From UHGV virus genome UHGV-1497419: 64,000 nt of DNA; one strand, written 5' to 3'. Under the pieces are notes generated by a model, which was given only the letters and a program-made list of their open reading frames with translations, searched no databases and had not been told where the DNA came from. The DNA comes from a virus. Shown piece after piece: positions 3,554 to 39,300 of this stretch (positions are counted from its first letter, which is position 1; the number at the start of each line of letters is the position of its first letter). Made by a program: the position numbers and the translations under genes.

Positions 3554-5335
3554 TTAAAGCTGCTTGTCAATATTATTTCGAATATCCCCAAGAGTTGTGT
3601 AACCGAACTGCTCAGAGTCACTAAAGACTAAACGTAAGGCACAAGCTGGGTGGTCAAGTACATCTGCAAAACTCTGGAATCCATAGCCATCTATAGCTTT
3701 CAGCTTGTCACCATCCCACATAGGTGCTACACCACCAAAGGCAGATTTCTTAACACCACTATCTGTTTTAGGGTCTTTTGCAAGCATAATCTCTTTACCA
3801 CCAATGCTTGCAAGAGTTGCTTTGACAGCAAATGCAAAGGTGTCACGAGTCATGTACTGGTAAGTGTAAGAACCTACGCCAAACACTACGTTAGAGCTTG
3901 CAAAACCCATTTCATACAGACGCTTCAGGATTTCGTTTGCACGTTCCAGTGTGATAGAGTCACCATAGATAAGGCCGATGTGCTCATCCAGTACCTTAAA
4001 CCCTTTAGAGTTAACAGTTCCCCCAAAGATGTTGTACAGCGTCTTAATAGCTCCATCAATCTCCGCTACAGGACGTGTTACAACGTTTGCAGAACCAACC
4101 ATATAAGCATTCTTCAGCAGTACTGTATCAGCAACTTCAAAGTCTTCTCTGTCAACAACCATTTCGTAGCCTTCTGACAGTAGCCATCCAGCAATACCAT
4201 AGTTAATGTTTTCAAGCTTCATGTTCAGGACAGAGTTCAGCATTGTATCACTTGCCTCCAGCTTGCTTAGGTGTTCGTAATAAGCCTTCTTAGCACACTC
4301 TAAGTGGATTGCTTTATAACCTGTGACAATATGTACAGGGTCTCCAGAGTCAGGGCGAATTACCAGTTTACCATCACGTTCCATAATTTCTTTACGGAGT
4401 GCTGGTAAGATTTCTGACACAGTTCTCCAGAAGTTATAAGTATCTGAAACAATGCTTGCAATACCAGTTGGGTAAGTTTCTGTTAAGAAACGACGGAAGG
4501 TTTGCAACTCACCTTTAAAACGTCTTTCTTCTTCAATCAATTCGTTACCGCCTTCCCAAGCAATGTTTGCACACATTACAGAGTGTTCAGTGGCTGGTAC
4601 AGAGCTACCAATATCAGAGATTGGGTAAGACTGTCCATAGATTCGTTTAGCCGTATACACAGCAGGGAAGCTATCAGTTCCTTTAAAGCTGGTTAAGTGA
4701 CCTACAGCGTTAAATGCGTCATCAGTAAAGCCGGACATACCACGCATAGCAAAGTCATGGCACTGATAAGGTAAATGTAAGTCGTTGTCGCAAGTAAGGT
4801 CAGCCCACTTCTTACAGATACGTTTATAATGCAATGCAATAGTTGCAATGGTACAAGCCTTCCAAATCTCAGCAGAGAAAGCATCCTCCAGATACCCCGC
4901 TACCCAATGGAAACCTGAAACAGTGTTCTGGAAGACAATCATTGGGACACGCATAGGGACAACTGTACCTTCTTCTACAGCGTATACTTCAACTGGTAGA
5001 TAACCTAAGTCGTGAAGTGCTTCCCAATGCTCTCGACCGATAGCATCTTTACCCAGAACACCATTCATGACTTCTAAGATTTCATCAATGGCTTCTTTTT
5101 TATCACGTTCAAAGAAAGTGGCGTTCCAGTGGTCTATCAAGTAATCTTTAACGAAACGTTGAATACCAAAAGCCACTACACCATCAATTGCTAAGGGGCT
5201 GTTAAACCATTTGTCACTACGTGGTGTCAGGTTGAACATCAAATACTCTGTTGCACTAGGATACTGGTAAACATGACCAGATTTGTAAGCATCTGCGTTT
5301 AAACCTGCTGGTACTGCATAAAGTGATTTAGTCAT
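3554..5335 (-). CDS. Nicotinamide phosphoribosyltransferase-like enzyme (NadV/NAMPT family; possibly a Namat-type nicotinamide ADP-ribose transferase)
   Basis: 593 aa; N-terminal DAYKSGHVYQYP matches the NAMPT DSYKVTHYKQYP signature; C-terminal GLIYGDSI...VVFGVGSYTYQ block. Confidence 0.8.
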   Translation of the reverse strand: MTKSLYAVPAGLNADAYKSGHVYQYPSATEYLMFNLTPRSDKWFNSPLAIDGVVAFGIQRFVKDYLIDHWNATFFERDKKEAIDEILEVMNGVLGKDAIGREHWEALHDLGYLPVEVYAVEEGTVVPMRVPMIVFQNTVSGFHWVAGYLEDAFSAEIWKACTIATIALHYKRICKKWADLTCDNDLHLPYQCHDFAMRGMSGFTDDAFNAVGHLTSFKGTDSFPAVYTAKRIYGQSYPISDIGSSVPATEHSVMCANIAWEGGNELIEEERRFKGELQTFRRFLTETYPTGIASIVSDTYNFWRTVSEILPALRKEIMERDGKLVIRPDSGDPVHIVTGYKAIHLECAKKAYYEHLSKLEASDTMLNSVLNMKLENINYGIAGWLLSEGYEMVVDREDFEVADTVLLKNAYMVGSANVVTRPVAEIDGAIKTLYNIFGGTVNSKGFKVLDEHIGLIYGDSITLERANEILKRLYEMGFASSNVVFGVGSYTYQYMTRDTFAFAVKATLASIGGKEIMLAKDPKTDSGVKKSAFGGVAPMWDGDKLKAIDGYGFQSFADVLDHPACALRLVFSDSEQFGYTTLGDIRNNIDKQL

Positions 5336-5357
5336 CTTTTAATCTCTCTCTCAAAAT

Positions 5358-5373
5358 GGGGCTTTTAAGCCCC
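5358..5373 (-). terminator. Hairpin GGGGCTTTTAAGCCCC between prs-like and NAMPT-like genes
   Basis: Perfect stem plus U-run on the minus transcript; possible attenuator inside the two-gene unit. Confidence 0.45.
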
Positions 5374-5382
5374 TATAAACTT

Positions 5383-6279
5383 TCAATCAAGGTTTGCTAC
5401 AGTAACTTGACTGTAATGTGTTAAGCCACGGTCTTTAGCTTCGCCTAAAGAGTTTGTAGTGTAAATATGGTCGATACCATTGTCAAGAAGGTTTTCAACA
5501 TCTTTAGAGAAGATACCATGTGTTACATAAAGTTCCACACGTTTTGCACCTGCTTCACGAAGATGCTTCGCTGCTTCTATGAAGGTTCGACCACCATCAC
5601 AGATATCATCCAGAATCATGACGGTTTTATCTGTCAAATCAACATCATCAAGGATTCGCATACTAGTAATTTCACCAGTCTTAAGGTTACGCACTTTAGA
5701 CATTGTGATGTATGGTTTATCCACCTCTTTAGCAGTCTCTGCAATCTTCTTAGCAGCACCTGCATCTGGGGCTACTAAGTAATCAATCAGTGGGTCATTT
5801 GCATAGTGGACTGCAATTTCCTTTTGAGGAATACTCTGGAAGCAGTTAAACAGGTTATCTGGTACATAGCTGTGAGGGTCAACTGCACAGACTGCATCAA
5901 AACCCATTGCATTAACCTGTTGTGCAAACACTTTCAAAGCTGCTGCATCACCTTTAAACATGTGACGGTCGTAACGTGCATTTGGCAAATAGTAAAAGAT
6001 AGCAGTCTTCATAGCAAACTTATGAGGTACTAAATCATCAATTGCTTCTTTAGCAAGTGCCACAGCAAACAATGTGTCCTTATCATAACCTTTTACAATC
6101 ATAATCACATTGTTGATAGATGATGCTGCATAAGCAGTAAAATCAACAAACTCTGGCGAAAAGTGTCCACCAATCTCACCAGAAGGGAATTGGACGATGT
6201 TAAACTCTTCTTCATGAGTCCCTTTAGTTGGTGAATGAACTGTAACACGGATAGATGTTTTCATAGTTTTCTCTCTCAA
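5383..6279 (-). CDS. Ribose-phosphate pyrophosphokinase-like enzyme (PRPP synthetase family; possibly an Adps-type ADP-ribose pyrophosphokinase)
   Basis: 298 aa; PRTase-type motif VMILDDICDGGRT and overall Prs-like layout. Confidence 0.7.
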   Translation of the reverse strand: MREKTMKTSIRVTVHSPTKGTHEEEFNIVQFPSGEIGGHFSPEFVDFTAYAASSINNVIMIVKGYDKDTLFAVALAKEAIDDLVPHKFAMKTAIFYYLPNARYDRHMFKGDAAALKVFAQQVNAMGFDAVCAVDPHSYVPDNLFNCFQSIPQKEIAVHYANDPLIDYLVAPDAGAAKKIAETAKEVDKPYITMSKVRNLKTGEITSMRILDDVDLTDKTVMILDDICDGGRTFIEAAKHLREAGAKRVELYVTHGIFSKDVENLLDNGIDHIYTTNSLGEAKDRGLTHYSQVTVANLD

Positions 6280-24352: not shown

Positions 24353-24609
24353 GTAAGCCTCTTTTAAGTAACTATTAAGTTTTAATCTTTTATCTTAACG
24401 TATTCTATACGTTATACTTTAAAGCTTTTTAAAAGCTATTAAATAATCTTTTAAGAATTTTAAAGTATCTGTATAGTTAAACTGTTAAGTAACCTTTTAA
24501 GTAAAAACCCACTTCGCAAAGATTAACACCTTGTCAAGTGCATTGTCAACTTGCTTTTTATAATTTTTTGCAGTAATGTATGAGGTTAATGATTTTAGAG
24601 GGAGTAAAA

Positions 24610-27309
24610 ATGGAAAACGTAGATTTTAAAAACTTACATTTAGTTGGTGATACAGAAACTGATGGTTTACTCCTTGAGTTCACTAAAGTGCACGTAATGG
24701 CTTTCGCAGACTATAAATCTGATGATGAAGAGCCGCCTGTATGGGTCTTTACAGATGAGCCTATCCTCGGTCACAAGTATACCAAGTACATTAAGGGTGG
24801 CTTACGTGAAGGTATTGAGTTTGCGTTAAAGGCAAAACGTCTTTGCATCCATAATGGTCTCGGTTATGACTGGTGGGTTTTCAATCACATTGCACCTGAT
24901 TTATGGAACTTTGATAATCCAAAGTGTAAACCGTGGAGTAATTTCTTTCAGGATTCTCTTATCCAGTCTCGTGTTCAGTGGATGGATAGACCAACTCCAA
25001 AGGGCTATAAAGGTGCTCATGGTTTGGCTGCATGGGGTGCTCGTGTTGGTGTTCGTAAACCAGAGATTGAGCATTGGGGTGTGTGGAATGCAGAAATCTT
25101 CACTCGTGTTGTAGAAGATATACGTATTAACGCCAAAACTAAACGGGCACTTGATAACGAGTATCTCAAGCTTAAGAAGTGTGGTATAGACACTTATGAA
25201 ACTTACATGCGAGCTAAAGAAACATCTTTCTGGATGAGTCAACAAGCTATCAATGGTTGGAAAGCTGATAAAGAGCTTATGGAGTTCCATGTAAAGGAGC
25301 TTGACAAGTTGACTAATGAGCTTGCTTCAGAGGTTGAACCACATCTACCTCCAACTATTAAGACCAAAGGTAAAGTCACTGGAGAAGAGTTTGCAAAAGC
25401 TTGGAATGAGTATGTTGAAACATTTGGTCATGCAGATGGACTGAAAAGAATTACCAAGTACCCTAAGACAAAGTATCGTCAGCAGGTACGTAATGGTGAG
25501 ATGCAGACATACGAAATCAAACCATTTGGTAAGCCAACTACAAAGATTTTTAACATTGAAAAGAGAAATTGCTATACACCAACCAACTCTGTAACTGGTG
25601 AAGAGTACAAGGAAGGCTTTGTAGCAATGAAGGATGCTCGTGCAATTTGCAATGAGTTGAACGCAAAGATTGGTAAGAAATGCAAAGACTGGAAGCCAGT
25701 AAAAACAGTCAAAACTGTGAAGTACTATAACAGCCACGTTGTTAACCACTTTGAACTTGAGTCAAGTCGCTACACAGGTTTGATTGATGCACCATATACA
25801 CCAATTGAGTTTGAAGTTTCTCGTATGACTCAGGTAGCAGTTGTTAAAGACTACTTGAAATCAGTTGGTTGGATTCCAGATGACTGGAACTACAAGAAAG
25901 ACTCAGATGGTCGCCCTGTCAAAGTTTGTCGTTTCAAAGACAATAAAAAGATGATTACAAAACATCCTAAGTGGCAGGAGATGGTGGAACGATGTGGTTT
26001 AAGTTATGTTGAACATGAAGGTGTCCAGTACATTGAGCATAACTGGTCTGTGAAGAAGTACACAGATTTGCTTGAGCCTTGCTTAATCCGTACTTCACCA
26101 AAACTTACTGAATCATCTTATGATACGATTGAAGGTGAGCTTGGACAGAAGATTGCTAAGTACTATACTTTGATGCACCGACGCAGAACTATTGAGAACT
26201 CAAAGGATGATGAAAAAGGTTGGTTGAACCAGATTCGTCCTGATGGTCGCCTTAGTGCTGGTGCAATGGTGTTCGGTACTTCAACTGGACGTATGACGCA
26301 ATATGGTATTGTAAACGTACCGTCTGGTGCTGCTGTCTATGGGGAACCAATGAGGGCAGTGTGGATTTGTGAGGAAGGTACTAACGTTGTCTCTGTAGAT
26401 ATGAACTCGGCCCAGCTAGTTCTGCTTTGTAACTTTATGGGTGATAAAGACTTCACCAAAGCGGTAACACAAGGTAAAGAAGAAATTGAGTTCATTCGTC
26501 AAGAAGATGGACGCTATTACTGCAAACATTTTGATGAGTACCTAAACCCAGAAATTGATAAGTACCTTCGCTATGACTCTGAGAATGACCTGTACGTTGT
26601 CTATTCAGGGACTGATGCACATACACTGAACAGTATTTACTTTAGCTTGAATGATGAGCAGGATATCTTGACTTGTCGAGCTACTCAGGATGAGAATCTT
26701 CTTCATGAGATTAGCAAAGGTCGTAAGAAAGCTAAGAATGGTATCTATGCACTGCTGTTCGGTGCAGGTGATGAGAAGTTTGCTAAGACGATTAAAGCTG
26801 CAACTACTCAGGAAGGTGCGCTGACTAAACAGACTTACTTTATTCGTTTGCCTAAAATTAAGAAGCTGCTAGATGACTTGGAAGCTGACTACAAAGCAAC
26901 TAAAAAGGCACTTGAAGAGGTGTTTGGTAAGACTGCTGCAATCTCTAAAGGAGGTTTTGTAAAGGTTGCTGGAGCTTGGTTGTGGTGTAAATCTCCACAC
27001 AAACTGTTGAACTATCTTTTGATGGGTTCAGAGGCTCAGATTCAAAATGAGGCAATTAACCTTGCTTGTCGTCGTATGATTGACGAAGGTTTGATGAAGT
27101 TGAATGGTCGTAAACCAGCTATTGGTGCTCGCTTACTCTGCGCATATCACGATGAGACAAGCTGGGAATGCCCAGAAAGTATGACGGCAGAGGTGAAAGC
27201 AGTTACTGACTGGTATTATGGGCAAGCTTCTAAGAACTTAGGTCTTAAGAAAGAAACACTTGTTACAGGTACTGGTAAGGTTGGTAAAAGCTGGCTTGAG
27301 GTTCACTAA
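24610..27309 (+). CDS. DNA polymerase, family A, with 3'-5' exonuclease domain
   Basis: Exo I motif DTETDG; motif B RKKAKNGIYALLFGAG; motif C YHDE; start set at MENV behind a GAGGGAG ribosome-binding site. Confidence 0.9.
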   Translation: MENVDFKNLHLVGDTETDGLLLEFTKVHVMAFADYKSDDEEPPVWVFTDEPILGHKYTKYIKGGLREGIEFALKAKRLCIHNGLGYDWWVFNHIAPDLWNFDNPKCKPWSNFFQDSLIQSRVQWMDRPTPKGYKGAHGLAAWGARVGVRKPEIEHWGVWNAEIFTRVVEDIRINAKTKRALDNEYLKLKKCGIDTYETYMRAKETSFWMSQQAINGWKADKELMEFHVKELDKLTNELASEVEPHLPPTIKTKGKVTGEEFAKAWNEYVETFGHADGLKRITKYPKTKYRQQVRNGEMQTYEIKPFGKPTTKIFNIEKRNCYTPTNSVTGEEYKEGFVAMKDARAICNELNAKIGKKCKDWKPVKTVKTVKYYNSHVVNHFELESSRYTGLIDAPYTPIEFEVSRMTQVAVVKDYLKSVGWIPDDWNYKKDSDGRPVKVCRFKDNKKMITKHPKWQEMVERCGLSYVEHEGVQYIEHNWSVKKYTDLLEPCLIRTSPKLTESSYDTIEGELGQKIAKYYTLMHRRRTIENSKDDEKGWLNQIRPDGRLSAGAMVFGTSTGRMTQYGIVNVPSGAAVYGEPMRAVWICEEGTNVVSVDMNSAQLVLLCNFMGDKDFTKAVTQGKEEIEFIRQEDGRYYCKHFDEYLNPEIDKYLRYDSENDLYVVYSGTDAHTLNSIYFSLNDEQDILTCRATQDENLLHEISKGRKKAKNGIYALLFGAGDEKFAKTIKAATTQEGALTKQTYFIRLPKIKKLLDDLEADYKATKKALEEVFGKTAAISKGGFVKVAGAWLWCKSPHKLLNYLLMGSEAQIQNEAINLACRRMIDEGLMKLNGRKPAIGARLLCAYHDETSWECPESMTAEVKAVTDWYYGQASKNLGLKKETLVTGTGKVGKSWLEVH

Positions 27310-27370
27310 TTAGTGTTGACAAGGTGCTCATGGAAGAGTACCTTATACTATATCTTATATAGGAGGGCTT

Positions 27371-27580
27371 ATGAGCCATCGTGGAAGAACCCATGCAGCG
27401 ATGATGAAAGGTGCTTCAAAGGAGACTATCAAAAATCGTAAGCAGAAGTTGTTTGAGAGAATGAACAGGTTAATTGACAACTCATCTCTTTCAGGTTCTG
27501 AGAAGGTTTTCTTGAAAGGTAATCTGAAAAGCATTGCACGAGAACTTATTGACATTGAGTATTGGAGACATCAAAAATGA
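27371..27580 (+). CDS. Hypothetical protein
   Basis: 69-aa ORF behind a TAGGAGGG ribosome-binding site. Confidence 0.35.
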   Translation: MSHRGRTHAAMMKGASKETIKNRKQKLFERMNRLIDNSSLSGSEKVFLKGNLKSIARELIDIEYWRHQK

Positions 27581-27795
27581 CACTTGCAGACGTTATTCAG
27601 CAACTTCACGACAACTGCTATACCCCAGAGTTGATTCAGGAGATGTGTATTGTAGTGATGCCTAGCAAGTTCGTAAAAGCCTTTAACAGTGACACTTTAA
27701 GGTCTGCACACATTCTTATTGTTGAAGGTAAGATTGCAAAAGACCGTACAGGTGTTCTTAAGGGTGAACGTATTGATATCTTGGAATTGTTATGA
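27577..27795 (+). CDS. Hypothetical protein
   Basis: ATGA-coupled start to the upstream ORF. Confidence 0.3.
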   Translation: MTLADVIQQLHDNCYTPELIQEMCIVVMPSKFVKAFNSDTLRSAHILIVEGKIAKDRTGVLKGERIDILELL

Positions 27796-27952
27796 ATAAG
27801 TTATATAGTCTCTGGGGAAGGATGGGTAAAGATTCTGACTGGAATCTGCTCAAAACAAATGTAAAAAGTAATGAGATAGCGTACTACAAAATTCATTACT
27901 ACAAAACTTTCAGAGAGTTTGAGTATCGTGAACAACAGACAGGAGAAGTATT

Positions 27953-28189
27953 ATGTGGAAATCAGTAATTGTGCTTGGTGTTATTTTTCTATCTGGCTGC
28001 AACCCTTCTTATGAAGATAAAAATGCTTCTTATAGTCTCCCACCAGAGATGCAAGATTGTAAAGTCTATAAGCTGAATGGGGATGCAATAAGCACAGATA
28101 TTGTTGTTGTAAGATGTCCAAACTCTCAAACGACAACATCTTATCGTTATGGTAAAAATAGTCAATCACACACTACTGTTATTGAGTGA
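27953..28189 (+). CDS. Small lipoprotein (signal peptide with lipobox)
   Basis: MWKSVIVLGVIFLSGC: hydrophobic signal peptide ending in an L-S-G-C lipobox; 78 aa. Confidence 0.5.
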   Translation: MWKSVIVLGVIFLSGCNPSYEDKNASYSLPPEMQDCKVYKLNGDAISTDIVVVRCPNSQTTTSYRYGKNSQSHTTVIE

Positions 28190-28407
28190 GGTTTTTCAAG
28201 ATGCAAGTCTTAGTAAACTATATCTACCGTTATGATACTGTTCACTCCACTACAAACATAGCTCAACGTAACCCAATCGTACCGCGAGAAGGTGAATTGG
28301 TTCGCATTGAGGGTTGGACTTACACTGTGGAAAACATCATTCATAAGTTTGATGTTGCTGGTGATGTTCAAGTTATTGACGTAGAGATTGGTGGTAAGAG
28401 AAAATGA
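28186..28407 (+). CDS. Hypothetical protein
   Basis: 73-aa ORF. Confidence 0.35.
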   Translation: MRFFKMQVLVNYIYRYDTVHSTTNIAQRNPIVPREGELVRIEGWTYTVENIIHKFDVAGDVQVIDVEIGGKRK

Positions 28408-28595
28408 ACAAAGAAGATAAGCATAAAAATGCTGTACGAACTCCTGATGGGAAGATTCAATCATTCACCCTGACAGTTGGTGGAAAGCCATTCCGTTGCC
28501 ACTGCGGAGCAAACTGCTTTCATAAACCAGATAAAAATGACTTAGAGCTTTACGCATGTAATGCTTGCAATACTTGGTATCATTCAGAGGAATAA
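28404..28595 (+). CDS. Small zinc-ribbon protein
   Basis: 63 aa; CHCG...CNACN cysteine pairs. Confidence 0.35.
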   Translation: MNKEDKHKNAVRTPDGKIQSFTLTVGGKPFRCHCGANCFHKPDKNDLELYACNACNTWYHSEE

Positions 28596-28596
28596 A

Positions 28597-29697
28597 ATGA
28601 CAATTCTGTACAAACAAAATAAAGATGGTTCCTTCAACGTCTGGTCATGTGTTGCTGTAGGTGACAAAGTTATTACAACCTACGGTAAAGAAAATGGCAA
28701 GATGATGTTTGAAGAGTACACAGCAGAGCCTAAAAACATCGGTAAAAAGAATGAGCGTAACGCTGAACAACAAGCTCTCTTTGAAGTTGCTGCTAAGTAT
28801 AAAAAGCAAGTAGACCGCAAAGGTTATGCTTACACAAAAGAGTCTGCACAGAATACTGAGAAGGTAGGTGTACAGCTTGCTCATGATGCTGCAAAGGTTA
28901 GCCATGCAAAGTATCTGAAGTTCCCTGCTGATGCTCAACCAAAACTTGATGGTGTCCGTTGTAGGATTTCAAGAGATGCTGATTTAGTTAGTTTTACGGC
29001 TTATTCTCGTGAGAATACTGTTTACAACGTTCCAGCAGAACTAATTCCAGATTTGCTTTTGTTGCTTAAATTACATCCACAAGTTGAAGACTTTGATGGT
29101 GAGATTTATGCTCATGGTTGGGACTTAGAAGATATTGTATCTATGATTAAGAATGCTGACAATCCAGACCGTCACCTTCTTAAATTCTACTGGTATGATA
29201 TCTGCGACAATTCAAAATCTTGGCCTGAGCGTCGTGAAGTTATTGATAACTCACCTATTGTTGAGCTTGGGGATACCTGTAGAGTTGTTCCTGTGCAGAC
29301 TATCCGTGTAAATTCTTGGGAAGAGTTTGATGAAGCTCATGATAAGTGGGTTGAAGCTAAGTTTGAAGGTGCAATGTACCGTTCAATCTCTGAAGACTCC
29401 TTCTACGAGTGTTGTCACCGTTCATACTTCTTGATTAAGCACAAGAAGATGCACACTGAAGAGTTTAAAGTAACTGGTGTAAAGACTGATAAACGTGGTC
29501 ATGGTAAGTTCGTTGTAGAGACTCTTCCTAACGTCTTTGTAGATGTCTCATGGAAAACCACTCATGAGAAAAAGCAGTATCTGGCTGAGCATCCTGAAGA
29601 GTTTATCGGGAAGCCTTTAACGGTTCAGTTCCAGAAGATGACTCGTAAGGGGTCTTTACAGTTCCCTGTTGGGTTAGTTATTAGGGATTATGAGTAA
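28597..29697 (+). CDS. ATP-dependent DNA ligase
   Basis: Motif I KLDGVRC, motif III DFDGEIYA, motif IV EGAMYR, motif V FLIKHKK. Confidence 0.85.
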   Translation: MTILYKQNKDGSFNVWSCVAVGDKVITTYGKENGKMMFEEYTAEPKNIGKKNERNAEQQALFEVAAKYKKQVDRKGYAYTKESAQNTEKVGVQLAHDAAKVSHAKYLKFPADAQPKLDGVRCRISRDADLVSFTAYSRENTVYNVPAELIPDLLLLLKLHPQVEDFDGEIYAHGWDLEDIVSMIKNADNPDRHLLKFYWYDICDNSKSWPERREVIDNSPIVELGDTCRVVPVQTIRVNSWEEFDEAHDKWVEAKFEGAMYRSISEDSFYECCHRSYFLIKHKKMHTEEFKVTGVKTDKRGHGKFVVETLPNVFVDVSWKTTHEKKQYLAEHPEEFIGKPLTVQFQKMTRKGSLQFPVGLVIRDYE

Positions 29698-29704
29698 AAA
29701 GTTG

Positions 29705-29732
29705 TTGACATAGAAAATTTGGTGAGTATACT
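29705..29732 (+). promoter_or_regulatory. Sigma70-like promoter reading into repeat array A
   Basis: TTGACA - 16 nt - TATACT. Confidence 0.55.
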
Positions 29733-29769
29733 GAGCAGCATAAACCAACGGGTACTCACCAACACCCCT

Positions 29770-30078
29770 TAAGAGTCTTTGAAAAGGGTTTTTAAGTGAT
29801 GTGGGGCGAGGCTCGGTGAGGTGGGGTAAGGCATAGTGCGGTGCTGTTTGGTATGGGTAGTTAGTCTCAGCTACATTAAAATGAGACTTACCTTTTTAAA
29901 GGGTCTTTAAACAGGGTCTTTTAATAAGGTTGTGTGATGTGATGTATGGTGCTGTGGAGTTTGGTTAGGTCCGGTCAGGTATGGTATGGTGATGTGAGGT
30001 ATGGGTGGATGGTAGTAGCCACGTTAAAAATCTACCAAGTTTCTAAAGAGTCTTCTGTTGAGGGTTCTTTATAAACAA
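29770..30078. repeat. Composite repeat array A: GGTCTTT-type direct repeats, two GT-rich tracts with 5-nt GG periodicity, conserved hairpins
   Basis: Order is Y-like / GT tract 1 / hairpin X (GTAGTTAGTCTCAGCTACATTAAAATGAGACTTACC) / Y (GGGTCTTTAAACAGGGTCTTTT) / GT tract 2 / hairpin X' / Y-like; no ORF on either strand. Confidence 0.6.
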
Positions 30079-30094
30079 CTTAACAATCAATTAA

Positions 30095-30700
<606 letters not shown>

Positions 30701-35681: not shown

Positions 35682-38066
35682 TTAAGCAGTTCTTACCCAA
35701 GCCATTAACTTATAGAACTGGTTAGTAACACTAAATGCTGAACCAGAACCAGTACCACCTGTGTTACCACTAACTGTATGGGTGTGAGCACCAATACCTA
35801 CAGAGTGGGTGTGAGCACCAGTGTTACTTGTAGTACCAGACCATGTGTGTGTATGGTTACCAGTTGTGTTAGTGTTAGGGAACTTGTTATCAGTTCTGTC
35901 AAGCCAGTCAAGAGTTCTCGTCTTGTTATTGCTAACAGTTGTATAACCGTACTGAGCATCACCACCATTAACCAATAGCAGACCTAAGTGGTGAGCGTGG
36001 TTACCAGCAGCACTTGTTGTGCCACTTACAGAGTGAGTATGACCACCAGTGCTATTAGTGCTCTTCGTACCATAATCGAAAGACGAAGTGGTAGCAGAGA
36101 AACTATGGGTGTGTGATGGTAAGTTACCAACAGCTAACGTCACAGAGTCTGAACCGCCTGTTGTAGCAACATCTGAACCATTTGCTGCTGCAATTCTGAT
36201 AGTTCTACCAACACCATTGTTCAGGTACGTCCAAGTTAACCCAGGAAGTGCTGTATTAGGGTCAACATTACTGTTAAACCACGTTACAATACCTACTGGA
36301 TAGATTTTATTAAGGTCTGTAGAGTCACTTACTGCCTGTGCAATCTTCTGGTCAGTTTCAGCTTTAGTGTATGCACCAATCTCTGAAGGGTTTGGTCTCT
36401 GAGCTTCAGTGTAAACCTTAGACCATTCAGCCTCAAAACCCTGCCTATCTCTGGCTGTTCTATACCATAAACCACTATTCCTGTAATCAAACCTTAATTG
36501 TGCAGTTGGTGTTGATGCTAACATATTAGCGAATAGGTGTAAGACTAAACGGCTTGAACCACCACCCTTGATAGTCTCTACATAAATTCCTGAAGGTTGG
36601 TTCCAAGCCACACCACCATCAGACTCCTCCACTAAAGCTCTGGATGCTGACCATAAGTACTTTGCATCGGTTGCAGATTTAACGTAGTATCTATCATCTA
36701 AGTTAGACCAATCAGATGGTTGTACCTGACCAGTGATTCTAACAGTTTTATTCAGTAAGAAATCACTCCCCATGTAAATGGTGGTAGCAGTCCTGTCATT
36801 GTGAATAATGAGTCTGGTCGGGTCTGCTGTTTCTCCATTCCCAATATACCACCTTCTCACATCGTCAGCATTATGGGCAGAGAGATACACCTCTTTATCC
36901 TGAATAGTATTCCTTAGTTGCAATAATGGGCCATTCTGTTTAATAACCTGTGCAGACCTGAAAGTGTTTACATCACTTAGCTTAGCAAGATTACTCAAAG
37001 TTCCTGCTGGAATATATCTAGAGTCGATGTTAGTCCAATCAGAAGGTTGAACTTGACCAGTGATTTGGACTGTTCTGCTCATGGCAATGGTGTTACCTAG
37101 TGAGATTTGTGTATTTGCTAAGTAGTTATAGATGTTTACAGTGTTTTCATCGGTATCATTACCAATATACCACTTACGAGTTCCATCTGATTTTTTTGCT
37201 TGGATATACAAAGCAGCAGTTGTATCTACATTTTGCAGAGTGATAGCATTAGCATTCTTCTTAACAACAAAGTTAGTGAAAATATTAGAGCCACTAAAAG
37301 TATTATCACCAGCTAACTGTGCAAATCTCTGATTAGCTACTGTCTGAGTAAAGTATCTAGCATCTAAGTTAGAGAAGTCAGAAGGTTGAACTTGACCCAT
37401 GACTCTTAGTGTCTTGTTAAATGACGCTGTTGCGTCAAGGGTTAACATTGAGCCAGTGGCATGATTGTACAGATAAACATTAGTGTTGTTTGCATTTCCC
37501 TGTCCAACATACCACGTTTGCTGGTTATTAGCATCTCTACCCTGAATATATGAAGCTCCTGCATTAGTTGCTTTCTTAAGGGTTAACTGCTCACCATCAG
37601 TTACAATTGCTTGCCTAATGTTGAAGTTATTTGTTACAGCCAGCCTTGCATATCTTGCATCATTCTCTTCATTAGTTCTCATCCCAAGTTCATTAGGGCT
37701 TGGTTTATTCAGAGTATGATAAACAGTTGCCGACCTTGAAGCATCTGCAATAGTTAGCTTAAGACCGTTTGCGTTAATTTTAAAAGTCTTTAAAACATCC
37801 CCGATAGTAATCTCAGAAGAACCTGTTGGGTCAAATACTGCCTTACCGCCATAGAGTAACTTAACAATCCCTAAGTCACCTGTCATAGTACTACCAGCAA
37901 TCTGAACAAATCTCTCAAGTTTAAAAGATGCTAAGAAGTCTTGATAGGTCATTCGACGGTCTTCATCACCCAGCATTTCAGGTCTCTTTTTAACTCTGAC
38001 ATGAAGAAGGTCATCTGAACGGATTGTATCGATTGAGTTTAATTCACTCAATTTGTAATCTGCCAT
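35682..38066 (-). CDS. Long tail fibre protein with His-rich C-terminal tip domain
   Basis: Three internal QVQPSD(F/W)(S/T)N(L/I)D(A/S/D)RY repeats; C-terminal HTHS...GNHAHH...GNHTHTW...[18 protein letters not shown] repeats like the T4 gp37 tip; track start is TTG, trimmed to ATG behind GAGAGG. Confidence 0.8.
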
Positions 38067-38086
38067 TATAAATTTTCCTCTCAAAA

Positions 38087-38112: not shown

Positions 38113-39300
38113 TTAAGCTGTTCTCTGCCATACATACAGTACGAAGGATGGCTGCTCAATGTTGAAAGCTTGTCCACCACCAACACTATTCGTGTTTCCA
38201 CTATGTGTATGCTCAGAAGAAGAAACTGTCACAGTACCGTTGTGTGTATGTGAACCAATACCAACTGTATGGCTATGAGCACCAATACCCACTGTGTGAT
38301 TGTGGTTACCAGTTGTGTTAGTGGTAACGCTAAAAGAGTGGGTGTGCGAACCAGCGACTTCGCAGACAGCATCTGCTGAGTACCACGATTGGTCATTCCT
38401 TGTAGACCAAACCATTGCAGGTCTTTCCGACAGACCACCACCTGCTTCATAAGTCAATCTGTGGTTGTGAGCACCAGCAGCACTTGTTGACCCACTACCA
38501 ACGTGATTGTGGTTACCAGTTGTGTTAGTGGTCTTTGTTCCATAGTCAAAAGAGTTGGTAGTCTTAGTTCCATAGTCAAAAGCTGAGATTGAAACAGTTG
38601 CATTATGAGTGTGACCACCACCACTGAGAGACACAGAGTGTGAGTGTTGAGGCATATTATTAACTGACAAAGTGACAGTTGAAGCACCAAATACAGAACC
38701 TGCTGGCCTTGTATCAGAGTCATAACCAACCAACGCCATACCTTTTGAAACTAACTCCCAAGTACCTCCACAAATTAAGTATGTAGAGGGGTTTGCAGAG
38801 TTCATCGAAAGATGGATAGTACCTACTGGATAAGAAGCCTGAACAGCCTTGTACAAGTTATTTACTGCTCTTGCTGTAGCATACTTATCTGCATCCTCGT
38901 TATACAGGTTAGATGTTGTCCAGTTCTGAACATTACTTAAACCAACCTGTGCCTTAGTTGTATTGTGTGGGTTACTCTTGTCCTTGATATGTTGCTGGAC
39001 AAGGCTATTAACCTCTTCTGAAGACATAATCTGTAGATTTGCTCTTGCCTCAGCTACATTAACAATATCTGATAAGTTATTTGCAGCAACTAACTGAAGA
39101 GCATTAATAACATTATCTAAACCAATTTGTGTTTTAGTAACACCATGAGGGTTATTTTTTAGGCTTGCGTGTGGAGCAAGTAATTGCTCAAGAGTACACC
39201 TCTTATCCTCAATACCCTGCTTAAGATGGAAGATATCACTAAGGTCAATTGGTAAGGCTGCTTGAGGCAAGGCACTAATTTGAATTTCACCTACTGCCAT
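38113..39300 (-). CDS. Tail fibre protein (paralogue sharing the His-rich C-terminal domain)
   Basis: C-terminal GSHTHSFSVTTNTTGNHNHTVGIGAHSHTVGIGSHTHNG...; both fibres end in ...W(V/Q)RTA. Confidence 0.75.
   Translation of the reverse strand: MAVGEIQISALPQAALPIDLSDIFHLKQGIEDKRCTLEQLLAPHASLKNNPHGVTKTQIGLDNVINALQLVAANNLSDIVNVAEARANLQIMSSEEVNSLVQQHIKDKSNPHNTTKAQVGLSNVQNWTTSNLYNEDADKYATARAVNNLYKAVQASYPVGTIHLSMNSANPSTYLICGGTWELVSKGMALVGYDSDTRPAGSVFGASTVTLSVNNMPQHSHSVSLSGGGHTHNATVSISAFDYGTKTTNSFDYGTKTTNTTGNHNHVGSGSTSAAGAHNHRLTYEAGGGLSERPAMVWSTRNDQSWYSADAVCEVAGSHTHSFSVTTNTTGNHNHTVGIGAHSHTVGIGSHTHNGTVTVSSSEHTHSGNTNSVGGGQAFNIEQPSFVLYVWQRTA

Follow-up and report, generated by a model that had tools for sequence, protein, structure and literature searches.

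Phage T4 carries two early accessory proteins of the periplasm or the membrane, Spackle (Sp) and Imm, whose genes have no linkage to that of the receptor-binding protein and whose products exclude other phages once these have adsorbed, by blocking tail lysozyme or DNA entry; Spackle is a helical protein. The small lipoproteins that phages place in the outer membrane include the o-spanins, among them lambda Rz1 and T4 PseT.2, while T4 RI is an antiholin made early and tethered to the membrane on its periplasmic side. Llp (lytic conversion lipoprotein) of the virulent phage T5, which blocks FhuA, is a lipoprotein with a 77-aa precursor and an LSAC lipobox, exposed to the periplasm and possessing two non-lipid cysteines, which form a disulfide joining the termini of the protein (Cys11-Cys58); its gene adjoins the receptor-binding gene oad, and the receptor of T5 is the FhuA protein. 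The Cor family (phages T1, phi80, N15 and HK022; PHROG 1119) likewise consists of small lipoproteins with an intramolecular disulfide, and the phages carrying Cor use FhuA (PMC9586334). Rtp45, a periplasmic lipoprotein of about 6 kDa from phage Rtp, acts on LptD(E) and is paired with the receptor-binding protein Rtp44 (PMC12685063); it is specific to LptD-targeting phages and excludes via an envelope machine, not via a TonB-dependent transporter.

Here we describe a gene for a 78-aa prolipoprotein found in the window, that is, in the whole 64-kb stretch of phage DNA analysed in this work, and compare it with these systems.

The gene and its lipobox

The ORF occupies positions 27953-28189 of the plus strand, starts with ATG and codes for 78 aa, the stop codon being included in these coordinates (ORF list and direct reading), and its ATG overlaps the 3′ end of the preceding 58-aa ORF (27792-27968). 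The precursor consists of MWKSVIVLGVIFLSGC followed by NPSYEDKNASYSLPPEMQDCKVYKLNGDAISTDIVVVRCPNSQTTTSYRYGKNSQSHTTVIE, with the part after MWKSVIVLGVIFLSGC beginning with NPSY. A ribosome-binding site was marked by the CPT annotators in Citrobacter phage Moogle at the same place as the Shine-Dalgarno sequence listed in Table 1. The window belongs to a Felixounavirus (Felix O1-like myovirus), with the region 27000-29700 sharing 99.3% identity with Escherichia phage vB_EcoM_AYO145A and being matched by 260 phage records. In AYO145A the lipoprotein ORF is gp084, labelled as a "hypothetical protein"; identical copies of the gene are present in phages REP5-7, and it has been deposited in GenBank many times. 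The copies of the Felix O1 type start with GTG two codons later and keep the lipobox.

Table 1 Coordinates of the lipoprotein gene, its parts and the flanking genes within the window
Feature	Position	Strand	Remarks
Shine-Dalgarno sequence AGGAG	27941-27945	+	7 nt before the ATG; direct reading
CDS, 78-aa prolipoprotein	27953-28189	+	AYO145A gp084; PHROG 902; dN/dS 0.12; precomputed PF16225 match
Signal peptide, residues 1-15	27953-27997	+	n-region MWK, h-region SVIVLGVIFL, then S-G
Lipobox L13-S14-G15-C16	27989-28000	+	Cys16 predicted to be lipidated, first mature residue; Asn at +2
Mature 63-residue domain	27998-28186	+	predicted small five-strand beta fold (AlphaFold2)
Codon of invariant Cys36 (mature Cys21)	28058-28060	+	A1/A2 alignments; start of predicted strand 2; putative disulfide partner
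Codons of invariant Cys55-Pro56 (mature Cys40-Pro41), VVRCPNS motif	28115-28120	+	A1/A2 alignments; end of predicted strand 3; Cys55 a putative disulfide partner
Six small same-strand ORFs (69, 72, 58, 78, 68 and 63 aa)	27371-28595	+	flanked by the DNA polymerase and DNA ligase genes; lipoprotein gene in fourth place
DNA polymerase	24580-27309		upstream flank of the small-ORF run
DNA ligase	28561-29697		downstream flank of the small-ORF run
Tail-fibre genes	35682-38084 and 38113-39300	-	about 7.5 kb from the lipoprotein gene

An earlier, sequence-only reading had described a 78-aa ORF with a hydrophobic signal peptide and an L-S-G-C lipobox, which is borne out by the ORF list, by the PROSITE PS51257-type lipoprotein rule and by conservation in the family. 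The N-terminus follows that rule with K3, an uncharged h-region and the sequence F-L-S-G-C containing Cys16. It likewise shows the traits of an SPII substrate, namely a positive n-region, a hydrophobic h-region and a lipobox [LVI][ASTVI][GAS]C within the first ~35 residues. No other ORF in the window fits the PS51257-type rule; shuffled windows yield about 3.4 fitting ORFs by chance, so the pattern by itself is not significant, and it is conservation, rather than the pattern match alone, that argues for a putative lipoprotein. The lipobox cysteine is invariant in the alignments of 12 (A1) and 58 (A2) homologues, in both of which the hydrophobic N-terminus is kept while the sequence of the h-region drifts, and the lipobox is found in 195 of the 207 family members collected. 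The Pfam model LPAM_1 (lipid-attachment site) matches 21 members out of 150.

According to the enterobacterial "+2 rule", Asp at this position leads to retention in the inner membrane and other residues to sorting to the outer membrane. Since the window lipoprotein has Asn at +2, as is the case in Felixounavirus, it is predicted to be located in the outer membrane. Asp occupies the same position in the members from Eneladusvirus, Asterius and Vequintavirinae, all of these being enterobacterial phages, and over the whole family the residue is Asp in 62 members, Glu in 29, Ser in 24, Asn in 22 and Thr in 21. With such mixed +2 residues in enterobacterial phages the function seems to be independent of one particular membrane, which fits a target that is soluble in the periplasm or in transit through it. 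A tether of about ten residues limits the reach of the protein, so the different membrane anchors could instead mean different targets.

Family distribution and predicted fold

The protein matches PHROG 902, annotated as "unknown function", with E = 2.5e-16 over residues 1-76, and in a precomputed Pfam table the exact protein is assigned to PF16225 (DUF4884) at the confident level (E<=1e-5). DUF4884/PHROG 902 is the protein's own family and comprises lipoproteins of about 80 residues with no assigned function. The precomputed tables give PF16225 to every family member, whereas a local Pfam-A hmmscan of the protein and of 150 members returned no match to it, meaning that the two sources disagree on the existence of the model or on its match. 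Scans of the protein against Pfam, NCBIfam and PADLOC gave nothing real, and the 150 members produced only lipid-attachment-site matches and noise against Pfam. Homology searches offer no functional name for the family, only "hypothetical protein" or "lipoprotein", and the literature yielded no work on the function of DUF4884, PF16225 or Felix O1 lipoproteins.

The family was detected by tblastn in 586 phage records, while a profile search of 1.84 billion cluster representatives (clusters defined at 50% identity) found 999 clusters at E<=1e-3 and 454 at E<=1e-10, the best 150 of the 999 being 71-154 aa long. The carrier phages are unrelated virulent lineages, and the family is restricted to phages or phage-like contigs. 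The carriers include Felixounavirus, Mooglevirus, the jumbo Eneladusvirus (Yersinia, Erwinia) and Asteriusvirus (E. coli, Salmonella), Vequintavirinae (E. coli, Klebsiella, Pectobacterium, Enterobacter, Serratia), Saclayvirus (Acinetobacter), Vibrio siphophages of about 114 kb, Vibrio phage RYC and, by fold match only, T4-like Aeromonas phages. Among phages recorded on E. coli, Salmonella and Shigella, every copy shares about 85-100% identity with the window protein. Pairwise comparison of 22 Felixounavirus-like copies gives a median dN/dS of 0.12, and the gene is under strong purifying selection. Within Ounavirinae it is accessory and not core: it is present in 197-198 records, 197 being the count at the DNA level, versus 306 that contain the polymerase next to it, and the Erwinia members all lack it.

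The sole bacterial chromosomal copy, found by searching genome contigs with a profile from a narrower alignment, lies on a contig of Hylemonella gracilis ATCC 19624 (4983-5261) and codes for 92 aa with an LAGC lipobox and Asp at +2. The genomic island around it contains XRE-type HTH regulators, a 257-aa lipoprotein and a secreted 488-aa protein, and could represent either a defence island or what is left of a prophage. Several other records deserve mention. A 192-kb phage contig from IMG/VR harbors tandem paralogues of the family, 98 and 108 aa in length, at about 3950-4570. Lipoprotein copies 92-94% identical at the protein level are present in GenBank entries MG065664 ("Campylobacter phage A132") and GU169904 ("Staphylococcus phage SA1"), of which either the host labels or the assemblies look wrong or chimeric. 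The T1-like phage Henu8 is a candidate carrier of both Cor and a "DUF4884" protein, and no family member was detected by hmmsearch in its relative pSf-1.

Cys16, Pro30, Cys36 and Cys55-Pro56 do not vary in either alignment (12 and 58 homologues), with at least 90% conservation for Tyr27, Leu29, Tyr39, Val52 and Gly67 in the 12-sequence alignment and for Lys68 in the 58-sequence one; the core motifs are Y-x-L-P, D-C-K-I-Y, V-V-R-C-P-N-S and G-K. Exactly two non-lipid cysteines are present in 167 of 195 members. The AlphaFold2 model of the 63 mature residues, built with a 150-sequence alignment, is of moderate confidence (pLDDT 75.7, pTM 0.52) and has predicted strands at mature residues 4-7, 22-27, 35-39, 45-51 and 54-60. 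In this model strands 2 and 3 form a hairpin with Cys36 and Cys55 on either side of its open end, and because of this position a periplasmic disulfide between the two is a reasonable supposition, one that would probably staple the mature domain.

The same fold is predicted for the lipoproteins of Aeromonas phage Aeh1, Yersinia phage fHe-Yen9-03 and Vibrio phage JSF10, and all the Foldseek matches in BFVD are uncharacterised phage "lipoproteins" (Aeh1, fHe-Yen9-03, phiAS5, JSF10). Two models, both of moderate confidence, were compared with the PDB by Foldseek and gave nothing at E<=0.001, nor did a PDB sequence profile search with the lipoprotein family give a match; the PDB set presumably includes the FhuA-Llp and LptDE-Rtp45 (9RPS) entries.

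Taken as a whole, the gene is very probably an accessory phage gene coding for a lipoprotein that is exported by the Sec/SPII route, loses residues 1-15, is lipidated at Cys16 and exposes to the periplasm a beta domain with a probable disulfide on a tether of about ten residues. We infer the lipidation, disulfide, localisation and timing of the protein, as well as the target and phenotype considered below.

Genomic context

The sequence-only reading had also placed the gene among small genes of the early region and not by a receptor-binding gene, and it does lie in the block between polymerase and ligase, with the tail fibres far off (Table 1). All its neighbours fall into PHROGs with no known function, and no terminator-like site was predicted on the plus strand in 27200-30200. 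In AYO145A a "sigma-70 promoter with 1 mismatch" is annotated after the polymerase gene; the corresponding sequences here (27316-27349), TTGACA and TATACT, are separated by a spacer of 22 nt, which is outside the usual 16-18 nt and makes the annotation doubtful, and the promoter scan of the window missed this site. For these reasons an early or middle timing is something we infer from the position of the gene only.

In nine annotated distant loci the gene again belongs to a series of small ORFs close to genes of replication or nucleotide metabolism, and in none of the nine does it adjoin a tail-fibre or lysis gene. An all-against-all comparison of the neighbours in 27 loci revealed no partner conserved across lineages, conservation being seen within a genus only, and the lipoprotein gene therefore travels alone. 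The ORF at 27953-28189 is thus a genuine gene, under selection, equipped with a lipobox, widespread and solitary.

Some features of the surrounding loci are worth recording in their own right. The 63-aa ORF at 28404-28595 of the plus strand (PHROG 5768) codes for a Cys/His-rich protein with a zinc-ribbon-like motif (CHCGANCFH...CNACN) and overlaps the longest frame of the DNA ligase. Relatives differ by a gene for an HNH/AP2 homing endonuclease located directly 3′ of the DNA polymerase (1864-2367 in the locus of a relative), which is absent from the window (27309-27371). In Acinetobacter phage Aci01-1 a gene for the membrane-stress protein PspA/IM30 (locus positions 1245-1943) is situated two genes 5′ of the family member, this being a single case. 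Salmonella phage SD-6_S16 encodes a second, unrelated lipoprotein (2602-2877, LTAC, 91 aa, several cysteines) two genes 3′ of its family member, so jumbo phages encode several early lipoproteins.

Proposed role and its alternatives

The reading we tentatively put forward, as possible and by analogy, is an envelope role independent of the receptor, consisting in post-adsorption exclusion and/or in protection of the infected envelope. It is suggested by the position in the early block, the accessory status, the solitary horizontal spread among phages that differ in receptor and tail, the strong purifying selection and the mixed sorting signals; receptor independence in particular is indicated by the use of LPS reported in the literature, by the 7.5 kb separating the gene from the tail fibres, by the lack of a neighbour conserved across lineages in the 27 loci and by the close similarity (about 85-100% identity to the window protein) of the copies from phages of E. 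coli, Salmonella and Shigella. The lipoprotein would be produced along with the replication genes, and its mature domain would be held by the ten-residue linker to a periplasmic membrane face, where it would bind a component that is conserved among proteobacteria or crosses the periplasm and is unconnected with the phage receptor. A second phage would then be blocked after adsorption, at the stage of tail-tip penetration, peptidoglycan digestion or DNA passage, and/or the infected envelope would be shielded from attack from outside. The copy in the Hylemonella island is compatible with use as an exclusion gene.

In its logic such a role resembles T4 Spackle and Imm more than T5 Llp. The closest analogy is with the former two because they too are accessory proteins of a virulent myovirus encoded away from the receptor-binding gene. 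They are not lipoproteins, however, and Spackle is helical whereas the window protein is predicted to be all-beta; no sequence or fold match to Spackle was found in the PDB. The exclusion idea draws largely on an analogy with the handful of early envelope proteins that have been characterised in virulent phages, and it is held with low confidence.

A broader form of the proposal, somewhat doubtful, is that PHROG 902/DUF4884 might be a periplasmic effector common to phages of proteobacteria, namely a solitary, horizontally mobile early lipoprotein binding either a conserved envelope component or the incoming tail tip or muralytic enzyme. Binding of this kind would result in broad (heterotypic) receptor-independent superinfection exclusion or in protection from lysis from without.

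A take-over of the host envelope or a counter-defence is rather unlikely as an alternative, and the data at hand do not distinguish it from exclusion. Here the lipoprotein would bind a host machine or enzyme, such as a peptidoglycan hydrolase, Lpt/Bam/Lol, Tol-Pal or a periplasmic protease; the binding would stabilise or remodel the envelope while infection proceeds, or would neutralise an envelope-based defence or the toxin of a competitor, much as lipoproteins that inhibit lysozyme or confer T6SS immunity do. The spread of the hosts across gamma- and beta-proteobacteria together with the conserved core motifs argues for a conserved target, as this explanation supposes. The lysozyme inhibitors MliC and PliC form a pair with mixed membrane anchoring, and the mixed anchoring signals of the family recall it. 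The PspA/IM30 gene near the Acinetobacter family member would also suit an envelope function, but it is one instance, and no similarity to known inhibitor or immunity families was found with Pfam, NCBIfam, PADLOC, PDB sequence searches or Foldseek.

Masking of the phage's own receptor in the manner of Llp and Cor, in which the lipoprotein binds the periplasmic face of an outer-membrane receptor and allosterically closes the site for the receptor-binding protein, is improbable. The likeness lies in a small lipoprotein of a virulent phage with a precursor of nearly the same size (78 versus 77 aa), an LSGC lipobox versus LSAC in Llp, periplasmic exposure, a predicted outer-membrane location because of Asn at +2, and two non-lipid cysteines as in Llp and Cor, although these are at mature positions 21 and 40 and not near the termini as in Llp, and their disulfide is a putative one. 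Against it, only the signal-peptide and lipobox columns are aligned by hhalign (22 with Cor of pSf-1 and 19 with T5 Llp), BLASTP of the mature domain against that of Llp gives E = 0.1, the match to PHROG 1119 (E = 0.092) covers residues 1-39 only, and there is no Foldseek match in the PDB at E<=0.001. The genes llp, cor and rtp45 adjoin a receptor-binding gene, and the Cor-like gp84 of pSf-1 is in the tail region two genes after the tail protein gene gp82, in contrast to the distance between the window gene and its tail fibres. For Felix O1 and its relatives, Felixounavirus included, the reported target is LPS and not a protein receptor (PMC8594841), unlike T5 with FhuA. The family is moreover common to phages with unrelated tails, hosts and receptors, and a third of it has Asp at +2, which in enterobacteria means inner-membrane retention. 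Rtp45 is similar in being a small periplasmic lipoprotein, but it differs in the traits listed at the outset; no PDB profile match to it (9RPS) was obtained, and it is not among the Foldseek matches listed. Membership in the Llp, Cor and Rtp45 families was rejected on the basis of the alignment limited to the signal peptide, the E value of 0.1 for the mature domains and the missing fold match. The receptor-blocking analogy with T5 Llp and Cor drawn from the sequence alone is therefore not supported, with sequence, fold, gene position and the LPS receptor all speaking against it, and superinfection exclusion is plausible in a receptor-independent form only. The caution expressed in the same reading that the role was not established holds, as no source gives the family a functional name.

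A function in lysis, either as an o-spanin equivalent to Rz1 or as a tethered periplasmic protein that acts as antiholin or regulates lysis, is very improbable. The window protein shares with o-spanins the nature of a small phage outer-membrane lipoprotein with cysteines, RI provides a precedent for an early tethered antiholin, and the window phage carries rIIA and rIIB. The lineage, however, has its own overlapping pair of i-spanin and o-spanin genes beside the polynucleotide kinase gene, represented by genes 121 and 122 in Moogle, whose annotation comes from a group expert in lysis, and by gp006 with an overlapping ORF (MKRLSQSF...MSGC) in AYO145A, and for this reason the window lipoprotein is not an o-spanin, an identity which was rejected. 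The neighbours of the lipoprotein gene have no transmembrane domain, hence there is no i-spanin candidate to act as a partner, and the mature domain, with only four prolines among its 63 residues and a beta fold predicted to be globular, is unlike the proline-rich o-spanins. Holin and endolysin are encoded elsewhere, the holin being located beside the tail fibre in Moogle, and the types of holin vary among phages sharing the lipoprotein family. The o-spanin ORF of AYO145A is homologous to the o-spanin of Moogle, and the spanin region is just outside the window. As a separate observation, the o-spanin of the lineage, starting with MKRLSQSFIMFVLLIIMSGC, is encoded in AYO145A (NC_028825) at about 5572-5841, in another frame and overlapping gp006 (Rz-like i-spanin, 5331-5678), and is annotated merely as a 5′-truncated "hypothetical protein", gp007 (5644-5841).

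That the protein is not exported at all, its hydrophobic N-terminus serving to anchor it in a membrane or having arisen by chance in a small cytoplasmic protein, is hardly credible, for although the lipobox pattern arises by chance about three times per shuffled window, the lipobox is retained with an invariant cysteine despite the drifting h-region and two more invariant cysteines fit an oxidising compartment.

The gene was already in GenBank and the family catalogued as a DUF; the novelty is modest, and the window lipoprotein, as an accessory gene product, is an ordinary but good experimental candidate. What is new is a phage lipoprotein family that differs from the exclusion lipoproteins characterised so far in its sequence, its predicted fold, its genomic context and probably its target. 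The value of the comparison is that the Llp/Cor and spanin readings are set aside and a tractable candidate of 63 residues is defined. Several hundred of the virulent phages sequenced to date possess a member of the family, and among them are Felix O1-like and rV5-like phages that serve in diagnostics, biocontrol and therapy. Receptor-independent exclusion or protection, if true, would affect the mutual interference of phages in cocktails and would point to a conserved envelope target on which many phage lineages have converged; the family would then be a lipoprotein counterpart of T4 Spackle and Imm, common to Felix O1-like, rV5-like, jumbo, T4-like and T5-like phages.
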